Below are positions 47,891 to 62,421 of a stretch of DNA of 64,000 bases, piece after piece. A program made the translations under genes and the position numbers. The stretch comes from Phapecoctavirus 536P1: the sequence record OZ035728.1; one strand, given 5' to 3'. The notes beneath the pieces were generated by a model that saw nothing but the letters and a program-made list of their open reading frames with translations, did not search any database and was not told where the DNA came from. How positions within the stretch are numbered: the stretch's first letter is position 1; each line of letters starts with the position of its first letter.

Positions 47891-47928
47891 ATATTGATTT
47901 CAGTTTAATAGGAAGAGAATTGTTAGAT

Positions 47929-48921
47929 ATGCCAGTAAAGAAGAGTATTGAAACATATATGGAAGAATGTAAGCCGATAGCTGAGGCTAAAGGGATTACC
48001 ATTCTCGGCACGTATGGAGAAGATAAAGGTGTGCATACGAAGATGATCAATCGTTGTGAACATGGTCATGAATGGAACACTACAACCTTTAATAAATTTA
48101 AGTCTGGTCGTGGTTGCCCTGTTTGTAGGTATGAGAGAGCAGGACAAGCTAAAACTATTCCAGATGATCAGCACATACAAGATTTTATGAATACAGGCAA
48201 GTTTAAACCTGGGACTATCTTCACTAATACAGGAAAACGAGCTAAAGGAGGGCGCAATATTTTATGGTGTGTAGAGTGTCCTGTTTGTAGTGTTGATGAA
48301 TATGTTCAAGCGGGTGTCTGCAATGGTAAATTTTACTCTACAGGGAGTAGCCTTAAAAAAGGGCAAACCCCTTGCCGTTGTGCAACTAACTATCACCACA
48401 CAGAAGAACAGATCACCTACAGAACAAAGAAGGAAGTAGAGAGTAAAGGATACATTTGGATAGGATGGATCGGGAAACCTTTTGCACATGGTAAGTTTAA
48501 ATATGGATGTAAGGAGCACGGAGAGCAGATAGGACGTGCAAGGGATTTATTACACCAGGGTAGTGGTTGTCCTGGTTGCGCTGGCAAGAATCAACAACAG
48601 GCATACATTAACAACGTCTATGATGAACAAGGTGTTCTTTGTGCATTGAAGTTTGGCATTGCCAATAATAGCGATCAGCGTATTAAGATCCAGAACTACA
48701 ACAATGTGTTTACGATGAAACAAACCCAAGTGTGGCGCTTCCCTACTGTGAAGCAATGCAAAGATGCAGAAAAGCGTTGTAAGCGTGTCCTTCACACGGA
48801 AGCAGTGAGCAAATATTCTATGCCAGATGGCTACACAGAGACAGTGGAGTTATCTTGCATGGCATCAATACAAAATATTTATAAACTTTATGGTGGAACA
48901 TTACAGGAGGAAACATGTTAG
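47929..48921 (+). CDS. zinc-ribbon repeat protein (possible nucleic-acid-binding / endonuclease-like)
   Basis: 330 aa; three spaced CxxC-type clusters (GCPVC, ECPVC, GCPGC), each preceded by His-rich segment. Confidence 0.5.
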   Translation: MPVKKSIETYMEECKPIAEAKGITILGTYGEDKGVHTKMINRCEHGHEWNTTTFNKFKSGRGCPVCRYERAGQAKTIPDDQHIQDFMNTGKFKPGTIFTNTGKRAKGGRNILWCVECPVCSVDEYVQAGVCNGKFYSTGSSLKKGQTPCRCATNYHHTEEQITYRTKKEVESKGYIWIGWIGKPFAHGKFKYGCKEHGEQIGRARDLLHQGSGCPGCAGKNQQQAYINNVYDEQGVLCALKFGIANNSDQRIKIQNYNNVFTMKQTQVWRFPTVKQCKDAEKRCKRVLHTEAVSKYSMPDGYTETVELSCMASIQNIYKLYGGTLQEETC

Positions 48922-49293: not shown

Positions 49294-49473
49294 ATGGCAC
49301 GTTTAGCAGACCATGAAATCTTTAAACCTATTCTGAACCACTATGATGAACTTAAGGCAGTGTTGGATTGTTATAGAGAGGATGAAGAACGTTTGGAAGT
49401 GAATCTTAAGATAGTTCTGATGAAAGCTTTTCAAGACGGGCAAGCTGAAGTCTTAGGAGGCATGAAAAAATGA
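49294..49473 (+). CDS. hypothetical small protein
   Basis: 59 aa from ATG after SD AAGGAG. Confidence 0.45.
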   Translation: MARLADHEIFKPILNHYDELKAVLDCYREDEERLEVNLKIVLMKAFQDGQAEVLGGMKK

Positions 49474-50012
49474 GAATAACTGATGAATATGTATTCTTCT
49501 TTTCACATAAAGATGTGTTTAGTAATTGGTATATTGCACCCTTTACAGAAACCGAACCAGGTTACAATCAGACATTTAATTGTGTCGAACAATACATGAT
49601 GTGGCGTAAAGCTTTGCTTTTTAATGACCACAACACGGCACAGGCTATTCTGACTCATAGTTTGATACGAAAAGATGAGAAGATCCAAGCTTATTACAAA
49701 CGTATGGGTAGGGCAGTGTCGGATTTTGATAACAACGTATGGGAAGAGAACCGTGAGCGTATTGTTATGCGAGGTTTATGTTTGAAATATGTACAGAATC
49801 CAGATTTGTATGCAGACTTACACCTTTACCAATACAAAACGTTTGTTGAAGCAAGCCCTTACGATAAGGTTTACGGAATTGGAATGGGGATGTATGAACC
49901 AGGGGTGCTAAACCCTGCTACCTGGAAAGGGCAGAATCTTTTAGGCAAATATCATAATAAACTGATCGAAATACTTTTCCCAGACAAAATACCGCAAAGA
50001 CGATATTTGTGA
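49470..50012 (+). CDS. NADAR-domain protein (YbiA-like N-glycosidase family)
   Basis: 180 aa; FFFSHKDVFSNWY and EQYMMWRKALLF blocks parallel E. coli YbiA FYS...FSNF and EHYFQAxKF; SD AGGAGG. Confidence 0.65.
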   Translation: MRITDEYVFFFSHKDVFSNWYIAPFTETEPGYNQTFNCVEQYMMWRKALLFNDHNTAQAILTHSLIRKDEKIQAYYKRMGRAVSDFDNNVWEENRERIVMRGLCLKYVQNPDLYADLHLYQYKTFVEASPYDKVYGIGMGMYEPGVLNPATWKGQNLLGKYHNKLIEILFPDKIPQRRYL

Positions 50013-50066
50013 TATTTTAACTTTTTTCATTTTTAGAACAAAGGTGTCACTTTGTAGCACAGAAAT

Positions 50067-50103
50067 AAGGCTCCTACAGCACCGTAGAGAGCCTATTATT
50101 TTG
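50067..50103 (+). terminator. probable intrinsic terminator after NADAR gene
   Basis: imperfect GGCTCCTAC...GTAGAGAGCC hairpin followed by TATTATTTTG. Confidence 0.45.
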
Positions 50104-50255
50104 TCCTATACAAACACTTGTCTTTTTCAGTTGGCATTGCTAGGATTCGATCTGGGTGGGTTCCTGAAGGTCTACCAATAAGATTAAAGGTTATCTCAAA
50201 TTCCCACTACCTGTTATCTCAAAAATCCCTCAAATTATTTAAACTTTTTAAGAAT

Positions 50256-50302
50256 TTACAAAAGTGAAAGTTGAAAACCAAAATTTAAAGTTTAGGAAAA
50301 TT
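50256..50302. repeat. 47-bp A-rich direct repeat, copy 1
   Basis: TTACAAAAGTGAAAGTTGAAAACCAAAATTTAAAGTTTAGGAAAATT; about 42/47 identical to copy 2. Confidence 0.6.
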
Positions 50303-50393
50303 ATCTTAAAATGTTAGATACAAAACAAAACTCAAAAGTCAAGGAAAATTTTAAAAATTTTGCGCGCCCACAGTATTTAAAGTTTTTTTGCTT

Positions 50394-50440
50394 TTACAAA
50401 AATGAAAGTACAAAAGCAAAATTTAAAGTTTACAAAAATT
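50394..50440. repeat. 47-bp A-rich direct repeat, copy 2
   Basis: TTACAAAAATGAAAGTACAAAAGCAAAATTTAAAGTTTACAAAAATT. Confidence 0.6.
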
Positions 50441-50455
50441 TTTATGCAGGTGAGA

Positions 50456-50472
50456 ATGAGAAGAGTTCTCAT
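50456..50472. promoter_or_regulatory. perfect palindrome ATGAGAAGAGTTCTCAT (operator-like)
   Basis: 7-bp arms around GAG; shares TTCTCAT half-site with Fur-box-like sites. Confidence 0.4.
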
Positions 50473-50480
50473 GTGGAAAT

Positions 50481-50503
50481 GCAAATGATAATGATTCGCA
50501 TTT
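50481..50503. promoter_or_regulatory. Fur-box-like site (weaker)
   Basis: AAATGATAATGATTCGCATTT; shares TGATAAT core with Fur consensus GATAATGATAATCATTATC. Confidence 0.3.
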
Positions 50504-50540
50504 AAGTTTATAAATGAGATTGATTCTTATTCAATAAGGT

Positions 50541-50569
50541 AAATGATAATCATTCTCATTTAGAGAATG
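50541..50569. promoter_or_regulatory. Fur-box-like palindromic operator
   Basis: TGATAATCATTCTC matches Fur consensus core TGATAATCATTATC at 13/14; continues into palindrome TCATTCTCATTTAGAGAATGA. Confidence 0.45.
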
Positions 50570-50819
50570 ACGCGCAGGGGTGGTGTTTATCTCGCGCTCC
50601 CGTGTCCCCTCGCCATGTAATAAGAATAACAGATCCAGCCAGGAAAGCAAGCGATTATTTTTATCTTTACATTTCTTTACAAATTTATTTTAGACGAGCT
50701 ACCGGCGATCAACCTTCCAACCAGCGCCCTGGTATGTTAGCCCCGCCTTTACGCCGTGGGGTGGCGCTTCCTCTTCTGTATGTAAAACAGTATAAGCCCG
50801 ATCCCTGGGCTTGTCAAGA

Positions 50820-51086
50820 TTATTTTTTGTTTTCTTGCCAGGATAGGACACCTAACCAAAAATGCATATCGCCCCGCGCCCCTGGTGGGATCTTGCTTTC
50901 CCCGCCGCCACTGCAAGCCCATAAATAACCATCAGCGAACGGATCAAAGTTTTCTATTTCTTCCACCTTATGATCGCCCAGGTTGAGAACTGTTTCAGCC
51001 TTTAAGCCCGTTGCGCTTGCTACCTGGTGCACCGTGCCGCCTTGCCAGCCCAATGAGTGCATAAGGTGTAATGTAGTATTTGTCAT
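50820..51086 (-). CDS. hypothetical protein in GC-rich island
   Basis: 88-aa ORF with GC-rich codon usage unlike surrounding genes; weak SD. Confidence 0.35.
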   Translation of the reverse strand: MTNTTLHLMHSLGWQGGTVHQVASATGLKAETVLNLGDHKVEEIENFDPFADGYLWACSGGGESKIPPGARGDMHFWLGVLSWQENKK

Positions 51087-51195: not shown

Positions 51196-51224
51196 TTGAC
51201 GTTCCTCACCTGGTAGCGTAGTAT
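51196..51224 (+). promoter_or_regulatory. sigma70-like promoter (TTGACG-N17-TAGTAT) heading the cassette array
   Basis: hexamers about 135 nt upstream of ATG 51360. Confidence 0.45.
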
Positions 51225-51359
51225 TCATCTTGTCGAGGGGGGCGAGGCACAACGACAATAAACAACAGGAGGGCGCAATGTAGGACGGGCAAAGGTGAGG
51301 ATCTCCATAATCCACCGTCAACCAACAAAAAACATCATTCATCACCTGGAGTTAAAATC

Positions 51360-51557
51360 ATGGCAACATTGCACATTGTGGCGAAAGCTGGACAAATCAA
51401 CGTAATAGTAAACGGTTTTACTGAGTTCAGTCATCCCCAGGATGATCATGAAACGGTTTTATCTTTCATTGATTCCCTGTTAGAAATGGGAGTCATTACA
51501 GAAGACCAGCACGCTACAAAATGCAAGCGCGTTAATCAAATTGCAGGAATAGAATAA
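51360..51557 (+). CDS. hypothetical small protein
   Basis: 65 aa; first ORF of array. Confidence 0.55.
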   Translation: MATLHIVAKAGQINVIVNGFTEFSHPQDDHETVLSFIDSLLEMGVITEDQHATKCKRVNQIAGIE

Positions 51558-60959: not shown

Positions 60960-61320
60960 GGTTAAAATCGATCAACAACCAACAACAAACCATCAAAAAC
61001 ACCTTTTTACCTCCTTTCTAGTGCAATGATAACCATTATCATCTACCCATGATTATCTATGCAATATAAGCGCATAACTATAATGTTGATAATAGTTCGC
61101 AACAACTAACCAACAAACAACATAAAACAATAAGCAAACTAATCATAATCAAAGGAATAATAGCAAGATGATTGATAACGACAAACAATCAAACCATGAT
61201 AAATACTAAGCAAAATAACGATAACACGACAAAACAACCAACTAACGAACAATAACAAACGAAACCATTAAAATAATAACTATTAGCAAAATAGTGCATG
61301 AATGAAATCATTACAAAACG
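60960..61320. repeat. A/C-rich, G- and T-poor low-complexity tract without ORFs
   Basis: runs such as CAACAACCAACAACAAACCATCAAAAACACC and AACAACATAAAACAATAAGCAAACTAATCATAATC; strong strand asymmetry. Confidence 0.6.
61026..61043. promoter_or_regulatory. Fur-box-like site
   Basis: TGATAACCATTATCATC resembles 3' two-thirds of Fur consensus. Confidence 0.3.
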
Positions 61321-61882
61321 AATCATTCACAGAGTCATCATTAGCACGCTACGCCGGACACGTAGCGAGCTAATAATAAGCCAACTACACCCCAACAATC
61401 ATAACCATCGGTGACGGTTATTTCTTGTTACTGCGTAGCTTGCAATAATTGCAAGCGTAATGACGCTTACACTTATTGCGCTGGCTTATTATTAGCATTA
61501 TATGTAATTACCAAGATCATAACATTAGCGCAATAACAATAATCATTGTGGTAATTACAAGAGTTATCACTATCGTTCAGTGTGATCATCATTAGCAGGA
61601 TGAATAATTGCACGTAGCAACATGAGCGAATAGCGACAGGTTGCATAGTGTGCACATAGTGTATAAACATACAAGAAAATAAAGGCTAATCTTTTGGGGG
61701 CGAATACTATCGCGTAGCGATATGTTGAGCACTAAGAGAAGAGATAAACCTTAATCATGGGGGCGTAAATATCCGCAGGATTGCCAACGGCGATCCGGTA
61801 GGATGTTGAGCACCTTCTCTTAAACGTAAATAAAATCAGAAAATTCTTGATTTATTTTAGTTTTTATGTTAATAAACGTTTA

Positions 61883-61900
61883 AATAATAATCATTCTCAT
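61883..61900. promoter_or_regulatory. Fur-box-like site
   Basis: AATAATAATCATTCTCAT; 12/14 to TGATAATCATTATC core. Confidence 0.4.
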
Positions 61901-62061
61901 ATAAATAATAGTCCGTCTGTCATGAGCGGGATCAGTTGACAATGTTCCGTCATATGATGAAGTTGCCAAACCATTGATAAATAAGTGTTTGTGTGATTTA
62001 TAATCAGGTGGCCCACCTTGTCGCTATGTTGGCATGAGCCTTGCATAAGTCATTGAATACG

Positions 62062-62085
62062 AATGATAATTATTCTCATTCTCAT
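62062..62085. promoter_or_regulatory. Fur-box-like site
   Basis: AATGATAATTATTCTCATTCTCAT; 12/14 to Fur core with duplicated TTCTCAT. Confidence 0.4.
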
Positions 62086-62421
62086 GATATTTGGGAATTG
62101 TCGCTGCGTGGACCTGACGGCCCGAAAATTCGCGTTAAGCACTTCTTACGTATGCGCCATGATTTTTGCCATATCATATTGATTCTATTAGATATTCTTG
62201 CCATGATTGCCATGAAACAGGGTGTCCCGAAATAATCTCTCCCCGTAGATATTTTGGGTTACTTTTTATACAAGAGCGGGGTGTCAAAAATAATCGGTAT
62301 ATATGGGATAATTGATAGGAATCCCCTATGATAATTCGATTGTAATTCCCTAAGATTGATCGTATGATGTTGGTGATTGATGATTGCCATGAAAGATGGC
62401 TAACGATGAGAGGAGATTGTC

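Follow-up and report, generated by a model that had tools for sequence, protein, structure and literature searches.

Introduction

The replication origin of phage lambda consists of four O-protein sites and an AT-rich region and is activated by transcription from pR. In the T4 origins oriE, oriF and oriG, a promoter and its transcript are combined with an unwinding element further downstream; oriE has an iteron array and needs RepEB. Large phages related to rV5, phi92 and phAPEC8 are frequent isolates and have been proposed for therapy. In the literature on these phages, we found no account of a replication origin, early control regions, a transcription map, small RNAs or the non-coding cassette described below. 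A different type of cis-acting site has been suggested in phage T5, whose 'repeat region 3' was proposed to be an injection-stop signal, iss (Davison, bioRxiv 10.1101/866236); a corresponding region is present in the T5-like phage chee24.

Here, we analyzed 64,000 nucleotides of Phapecoctavirus 536P1 (OZ035728.1; the whole of this stretch is referred to as the window), in which a preliminary description had reported a pair of direct repeats near 50.3 kb. What had seemed a local oddity could be defined as a cis-element made up of lineage-specific repeats, invariant Fur-like boxes and a conserved promoter. Compared with the iteron origins of lambda, plasmids and P1, it likewise has direct repeats of the same orientation in AT-rich, easily melted non-coding DNA, a repeat sequence that is specific to the lineage with the layout kept, and a strong promoter aimed at the region. 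It differs from them in its bipartite units of 65–80 bp, which are much larger and wider spaced than classical iterons (17–22 bp at ∼22-bp spacing) and count against an origin, in having neither an initiator gene that contains or adjoins the array nor DnaA or IHF sites, and in that its origin role is that of a candidate. With the T4 origins it shares the order of promoter, transcribed stretch and repeats or easily unwound stretch; unlike in T4, no repE-like genes were recognized here, Fur-like boxes are interposed, and the transcript entering the array would be U-rich and thus a poor R-loop former.

Results

Structure of the repeat array

The two 47-bp repeats were found at positions 50256–50302 and 50394–50440, 138 bp apart. 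They agree at 41 of 47 positions, that is, 87% rather than the ∼89% initially given. The repeat is also longer than first noted, as 59 of 72 nucleotides (82%) are identical between 50231–50302 and 50369–50440. When this AT-rich region was shuffled 500 times with its dinucleotides preserved, the best match reached at most 33 positions for 47-mers (mean 27) and 43 for 72-mers (mean 36–37), and the real repeat exceeded composition-matched shuffles with z = 10–16.

The two repeats are real but do not form a simple pair: as judged from the alignment of their sequences, they are the outer two, well preserved, of three units that form an array of putative bipartite DNA sites. Unit 1 (50231–50302, plus strand) has box A at 50232–50249 (AAATTATTTAAACTTTTT) and box B at 50274–50294 (AAAACCAAAATTTAAAGTTTA), and unit 3 (50369–50440, plus strand) has box A at 50370–50387 and box B at 50412–50432. 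The unit between them (50297–50368, plus strand) aligns with the others with a 20-nt deletion; it carries a weak box A (AAAATTATCTTAAAATG) and a box B-like segment at 50322–50350 (AAAACAAAACTCAAAAGTCAAGGAAAATT), where a partial third copy of the distal half of the repeat is found (79%). Only a pair was seen at first because this middle unit is degenerate and rearranged in the window, whereas the outer two are intact.

The layout of a unit is box A (AATTATTTAAAsTTTTT), a 24-nt spacer and box B (AAAAsCAAAATTTAAAnTTT), often with an AnTn tract at the end. Fifteen units from six Stephanstirmvirinae lineages (the window, phiWec186, phi92, KP2025, KP13-26 and one IMG/VR contig) could be aligned almost without indels, with a single 1-nt gap. 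The boxes were conserved, and the spacer of ∼24 nt between them was fixed in length and free in sequence. Three full units at a spacing of 66–77 bp are present in four of the five relatives. phi92, KP2025 and the IMG/VR contig have three clear units spaced by 66–68 and 75–77 bp. In KP13-26, inspection by eye showed three units, of which the box search recovered two, at a distance of 75 bp. phiWec186/188 show two clear copies at a distance of 139 bp. Three or more regularly spaced direct repeats of the same orientation, as is typical of iterons, are thus found in the window as well, with the middle one degenerate.

Both motifs reported earlier, TTTACA and ATTTAAAGTTT, are present in the repeats. 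Within the 64-kb window, exact ATTTAAAGTTT occurs at this locus only, and the four copies of ATTTAAAsTTT that lie here within 200 bp are all the exact copies of that motif. TTTACA proved to be conserved in Phapecoctavirus and phiWec phages only and not beyond. Two TTATCTCAA motifs are located to the left of the array (50192–50221, plus strand), with a weaker third one at 50300. They recur in the cassettes of phiWec, SalP219 and rV5-like phages; with three mismatches to the DnaA box, they were rejected as DnaA boxes. Of all 200-bp segments in the window, positions 50232–50431 have the lowest stability (79% A+T), a feature that is weaker in GC-richer relatives, such as CR9.

The array lies within a 1.35-kb stretch without convincing genes, which is bordered on the left by the stop codon of a NADAR-domain gene (49470–50012; Pfam E = 8e-36) and on the right by the start, at 51360, of a long series of small early genes read rightward. 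The earlier statement that the repeats occupy an ORF-free stretch holds in substance. Mechanical ORFs do cross them, for example one of 64 aa at 50311–50505, but a 2-nt indel in phAPEC8 and anhysbys breaks this frame, and the stretch is therefore regarded as non-coding. Further right, an 88-aa ORF (50820–51086, minus strand; PHROG 19316, a predicted protein without assigned function) is variable and falls outside the conserved cassette; it is missing or swapped for other sequence in KP2025, CR9 and SalP219. Two genes upstream, the length of a gene with a CapR domain or HNH-type endonuclease (47920–48921) varies and the gene is missing from phiWec188, which suggests a mobile insert resembling a homing endonuclease.

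Conservation and uniqueness

The window represents a phAPEC8-like Phapecoctavirus (Stephanstirmvirinae). The 2 kb around the repeats are 93–97% identical to those of ∼70 phAPEC8-like phages, the closest match being vB_EcoM-P3322 (97.2%). A search for further copies, as proposed in the preliminary description, found none beyond the locus: in each of 71 phage records, the 72-nt unit 1 query had exactly two matches, and identity was ⩾99% in 61 of these records. Unit 1 was 100% identical in more than 50 phage records, although their genomes differ by 3–7%.

Among seven phapecoctaviruses, variable sites made up 5.1% of the repeat array, compared with 17.5% of the spacer to its left, 18.8% of the NADAR gene and 23.2% of the Fur-like box array. 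The array is the best-conserved non-coding stretch of its surroundings. The few changes in these seven phages were mostly in the middle unit and avoided the boxes of the outer units except in Phapecoctavirus DIJ07P1, and unit 3 was invariant. In DIJ07P1, unit 1 carries the unit 3 sequence at exactly the four positions that differ between the units, one of them in box B, a pattern that points to gene conversion between repeat units. No chromosomal counterpart was detected in 5,426 E. coli genomes, and the plasmid search gave one weak match, on a 137.6-kb record filed as a plasmid, which is about as large as the genomes of rV5-like phages.

A cassette shared by two subfamilies

We compared 12 lineages of large phages of E. 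coli, Klebsiella and Salmonella, six from Stephanstirmvirinae and six from Vequintavirinae (CR9-like, SalP219, rV5-like and Av-05-like). The repeats are kept in these relatives: all 12 lineages contain two clear copies or three units at the equivalent position, with a unit spacing of 63–78 bp. All six Vequintavirinae lineages have three units, spaced by 74–78 and 63–67 bp, whose sequence (GGnTCTCGATCGannTTTCaatTTCnAnATCGTATT) is unrelated to that of the Stephanstirmvirinae units. The adjacent Fur-like boxes and a 220-bp element stay alike although the array units differ. The genes flanking the Vequintavirinae cassette have no homologues in the window, and the cassette is therefore better conserved than its neighbors. 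On the basis of these alignments, the array is considered an ancient part of a non-coding cassette common to both subfamilies.

The cassette is ∼0.75 kb long and consists in all 12 lineages, from left to right, of GATATTT motifs, a GC-rich hairpin, the array, the Fur-like boxes, the 220-bp element and a leftward promoter, P_L. At its left edge, two GATATTT motifs overlap the stop codon of the NADAR gene (50002–50017, plus strand). In 12 out of 12 lineages, one to five copies in the same orientation were found where the upstream gene ends or directly behind it, and that gene differs between the subfamilies. The hairpin at 50069–50103 (GGCTCCTAC...GTAGAGAGCC, read from the sequence) is flanked by A/T runs and is invariant apart from four sites among the seven phapecoctaviruses. 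An ARNold terminator is annotated at the corresponding place in phAPEC8. The hairpin is the predicted terminator of the NADAR operon and probably also terminates the leftward transcript from P_L.

Immediately to the right of the array, four Fur-like palindromic boxes occupy 50455–50560 (starts at 50455, 50484, 50513 and 50542), with an exact period of 29 bp. Such palindromes (AATGAKAATNATTMTCATT) had seven matches in the 64-kb window, versus 0.37 expected, and were confined to two loci: the four beside the array, and three in or near the equivalent of the terminal repeat (61025–61043, 61883–61901 and 62062–62080, the latter two within it). Between one and six of them, of the same type throughout, are present to the right of the array in every one of the 12 lineages. 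Since their sequence is the same in every lineage and the hosts are all enterobacterial, the Fur-like boxes are probably host-factor sites. The array units are read as sites of a phage protein because their number, spacing and geometry are kept while the sequence is replaced between subfamilies.

The conserved, GC-rich 220-bp element (50563–50782, minus strand) lies downstream of P_L and, if P_L is active, would be transcribed leftward toward the Fur-like boxes and the array. It occurs once per genome, as measured with an nhmmer profile, and aligns across 11 lineages with 1- and 2-nt indels, which argue that it is not coding. P_L (50789–50817, minus strand; TTGACA-N17-TATACT) is a near-consensus sigma-70 promoter with 11 out of 12 matches that faces the 220-bp element and, beyond it, the Fur-like boxes and the array. 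All 12 lineages retain its hexamers, and the sequence of its spacer varies.

Early genes and physical genome ends

The rightward small early genes that extend to the genome end are opened by a promoter at 51196–51224 (plus strand; TTGACG-N17-TAGTAT). Between this promoter and the first early gene, ∼90 bp (window ∼51225–51320) are missing in phAPEC8, tuntematon and others, which have a GGGCGGC hairpin motif in their place; BLAST alignments come in two pieces because of this absent segment. Within the early-gene block, there are six copies of a conserved motif that forms a hairpin, TAGGGCGGCAATGGTGCCGCTCAC (52849, 55579, 56330, 57201, 58730 and 59002, plus strand). In phAPEC8, where this motif carries a PHIRE 'promoter' annotation of its own, it comes immediately after the early sigma-70 promoters of the annotation. 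It has the look of a 5' stem-loop common to early transcripts.

A counterpart of the 329-bp direct terminal repeat, which marks the physical genome ends, was located at 61809–62137, 11.4–11.7 kb to the right of the array. The Schickermooser record begins and ends with the same 329 bp, which map to these positions; a terminal repeat has been reported (PMC6563267). The phi92 record annotates its right terminal repeat at 148270–148612. The least stable 100 bp of the entire window (61813–61912) are inside the terminal-repeat equivalent. In the window, phi92 and Schickermooser, the distance from the cassette to the right physical end is 11.4–14.3 kb, or 7.7–9.5% of the genome, and only small early genes lie between them. 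A role of the array as a genome terminus or pac site was rejected on the basis of the position of the Schickermooser terminal repeat. The phi92 right terminal repeat is likewise 11.5 kb off, and the end of the phiWec186 record maps to ∼44525.

Discussion

A candidate origin of replication

The array is best read as acting at the DNA level, as one component of the ∼0.75-kb cis-acting cassette. We favor this reading because the RNA is unstructured, the motif is not a genome-wide promoter motif and the sigma-70-like hexamers are not kept in relatives. Our main proposal is that the repeats form a phage-protein binding array in a cis-acting cassette that is most likely an origin, to which we assign a probability of roughly 0.45; origin function taken by itself, although the leading candidate, is somewhat less probable. 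The array is most likely bound by a sequence-specific, co-evolving phage-encoded protein. We infer this binding and the identity of the binder, as well as origin activity and any role of Fur. The previous suggestion of an iteron-like binding array gains support from the uniqueness of the array, its local conservation, the fixed geometry of its boxes and the replacement of its units in Vequintavirinae.

According to this proposal, the cassette would be a transcription-activated origin of phage DNA replication. The AT-rich array would be the place where a complex assembles and the duplex opens, and leftward transcription from P_L may activate or prime the candidate origin. Host Fur, bound between P_L and the array, could gate this transcription. 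An AT-rich unwinding element, as expected for an origin, coincides with the least stable 200 bp at 50232–50431. On the other hand, neither Pfam nor PHROGs recognized an initiator or DNA-binding gene among the neighbor genes scanned, which were an AAA ATPase, the CapR/HNH-type endonuclease, NADAR and small proteins without assigned function. The DnaA box TTWTNCACA is absent from both the array and the rest of the window's cassette, and the array has no DnaA or IHF consensus sites. WATCAANNNNTTR was found in none of the 12 lineages, and single TTATACACA matches in three Vequintavirinae lineages are inside the 220-bp element. GC skew gave no origin signal at 50.3 kb, where the shift is opposite to that expected of a bidirectional origin; the minimum in the window, at ∼44 kb, tracks the switch of coding strand. 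If the cassette is an origin, it would provide a handle for engineering and replication studies.

A more speculative and quite unlikely extension is that the cassette is an undescribed iron-responsive control point of rV5-like, phi92/phAPEC8-like and, in part, T5-like phages. Host Fur bound to the boxes, between a constitutive promoter and an iteron array, would then gate origin firing or stepwise entry according to host iron, and replicating boxes would titrate Fur.

Possible tandem sigma-70 promoters

The best surviving alternative, although an unlikely one, is that the repeats are tandem host sigma-70 promoters, in which box A would serve as an UP element, TTTACA as the −35 hexamer and CAAAAT, inside box B, as the −10 hexamer, firing rightward into the Fur-like operators and repressed by Fur. 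The usual position of an UP element matches that of box A. A promoter scan found TTTACA-N18-CAAAAT in both outer units (50255–50284 in unit 1 and 50393–50422 in unit 3), together with TTTAAA-N17-TAAAAT and TTTACA-N17-GAGAAT, the −10 hexamer of the latter overlapping the first Fur-like box. Altogether, there were 12 promoter-like sites in 1.6 kb, compared with 3.9 expected. However, the TTTACA-N18-CAAAAT candidates have only 9 out of 12 matches and a non-optimal 18-nt spacer, and hexamers at 16–18 bp are not conserved among relatives. The −35 hexamer is not kept in the units of phi92, KP2025, KP13-26 and UViG53, phi92 has a G in place of the critical last T of the −10 hexamer, the sigma-70-like hexamers degrade in phiWec phages, and the Vequintavirinae units, read by eye from the unit alignment, have no sigma-70 match. 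Moreover, no conserved gene follows, the next 800 bp being non-coding or on the opposite strand, and the real early promoters of the phage are different (TTGACA-N17-TAnnAT, then the GGGCGGC hairpin). An antisense RNA read rightward across the Fur-like boxes may nevertheless exist.

The same picture emerges from comparison with known tandem promoters. The Phapecoctavirus outer units resemble T7 A1/A2/A3 and rrn P1 in having an A/T-rich upstream block and −35/−10-like hexamers, whereas the array differs from them in that its hexamers are lost in sister genera, it has no downstream gene, and the phage's own early promoters have a different and much better consensus. As far as the sequences indicate, the array is plausible as a promoter in Phapecoctavirus only, and the motifs are probably incidental or specific to that genus. 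A phage-specific middle or late promoter motif was rejected, as neither the window nor related genomes contain the motif at any other place.

Resemblance to the proposed T5 injection-stop region

It is very unlikely, in our estimate, that the cassette is a counterpart of T5 iss, that is, a cis site bordering the terminal early-gene block on its inner side, where DNA entry or end processing would be paused or organized, with repeats and palindromes as protein anchors. In T5-like phages, BLAST matches to the Fur-like box stretch fall close to the inner boundary of the long terminal repeat, and chee24 has six of the same Fur-like palindromes directly beside eight direct repeats of its own lineage. 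Both regions are large, conserved and untranslated, with Fur-like palindromes next to lineage-specific direct repeats. In the window, phi92 and Schickermooser, such a repeat region lies at the inner edge of the terminal early-gene block, with nothing but small early genes from there to the right end, and its fractional distance from that end is similar to the 7.9% of the genome transferred in the first step in T5. The only other Fur-like boxes of the window are those in or near the terminal repeat.

These points are opposed by several differences. The T5 repeats (TGTGCRAATCCGACA, 8–9 copies) are irregularly spaced and unrelated to the array units. The T5 region has DnaA boxes and is inside a 10-kb terminal repeat, whereas the window cassette lacks DnaA boxes and the terminal repeat of its group is only 329–343 bp; in chee24, the region also has a LexA box, absent from the window cassette as well. 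The paired DnaA boxes and large inverted repeats (IRD'/IRC') of iss were not found in the cassette, where the only inverted repeats are the Fur-like palindromes. The likeness to T5 does not go beyond the Fur-like boxes and a single 20-nt motif, and homology of the T5 region to the 220-bp element was rejected because this motif is all they have in common. To our knowledge, two-step injection is not known for these myoviruses, and the iss mechanism itself is unproven in T5. By this comparison, the relation of the cassette to iss appears to be one of resemblance, not membership. If the cassette does parallel iss, it would connect an old T5 puzzle with a far larger group of phages.

A possible role as RNA

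An equally improbable explanation is that the repeats act as RNA, as binding motifs within a non-coding leftward transcript of ∼0.7 kb that runs from P_L to the hairpin at 50069–50093 and works like a sponge or decoy. It is consistent with this idea that P_L is conserved and faces the array, that the hairpin, with U-rich flanks on the minus strand, lies ∼130 bp past the array, and that no clear canonical terminator intervenes; the one weak minus-strand site (50571–50549), with three G-C pairs, is itself a Fur-like palindrome. However, the array is not more structured than shuffled sequences (z = +1.4 for the minus strand and +0.3 for the plus strand), its RNA would be U-rich and of low complexity, and two direct boxes held at a constant distance are seen more typically in DNA sites. 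Fur, when bound, would presumably also block read-through. Rfam gave no matches at the gathering score, only weak ones at chance level, and no tRNA was found.

It is extremely improbable that the repeats are functionless and neutral, left over from a duplication event within the AT-rich spacer. A/T-rich DNA of low complexity is readily duplicated and one isolate (DIJ07P1) shows gene conversion between copies, but the conservation data already contradict this reading, given the best-conserved non-coding stretch of the locus, the identity of unit 1 in more than 50 isolates whose genomes differ by 3–7%, and an architecture kept across two subfamilies.

The 220-bp element

The 220-bp element with its own P_L (window 50563–50817, minus strand) is a curiosity in its own right, as its strong conservation has no explanation in coding, Rfam or folding. 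No Rfam family matched the element, its RNA was not more stable than shuffles (z = +1.9), and RNAalifold gave only three compensatory pairs, with a covariation term of −0.15.

The element contains an invariant 20-nt motif, TTTGTAAAGAANNGTAAAGA (window 50654–50683), which was also detected in T5 and dozens of T5-sized contigs (∼104–121 kb). The motif often occurs twice per contig in the latter, which suggests that it sits in their terminal repeats, and multiple copies were found in a few unrelated viral contigs (for example, L073 and L017). In addition, the rV5-like genome L027 (4320–4418), as well as L093 and L059, has a partial second copy of the 3' half of the element ∼7 kb away; this copy lies where a gene ends, and one Fur-like box comes after it.
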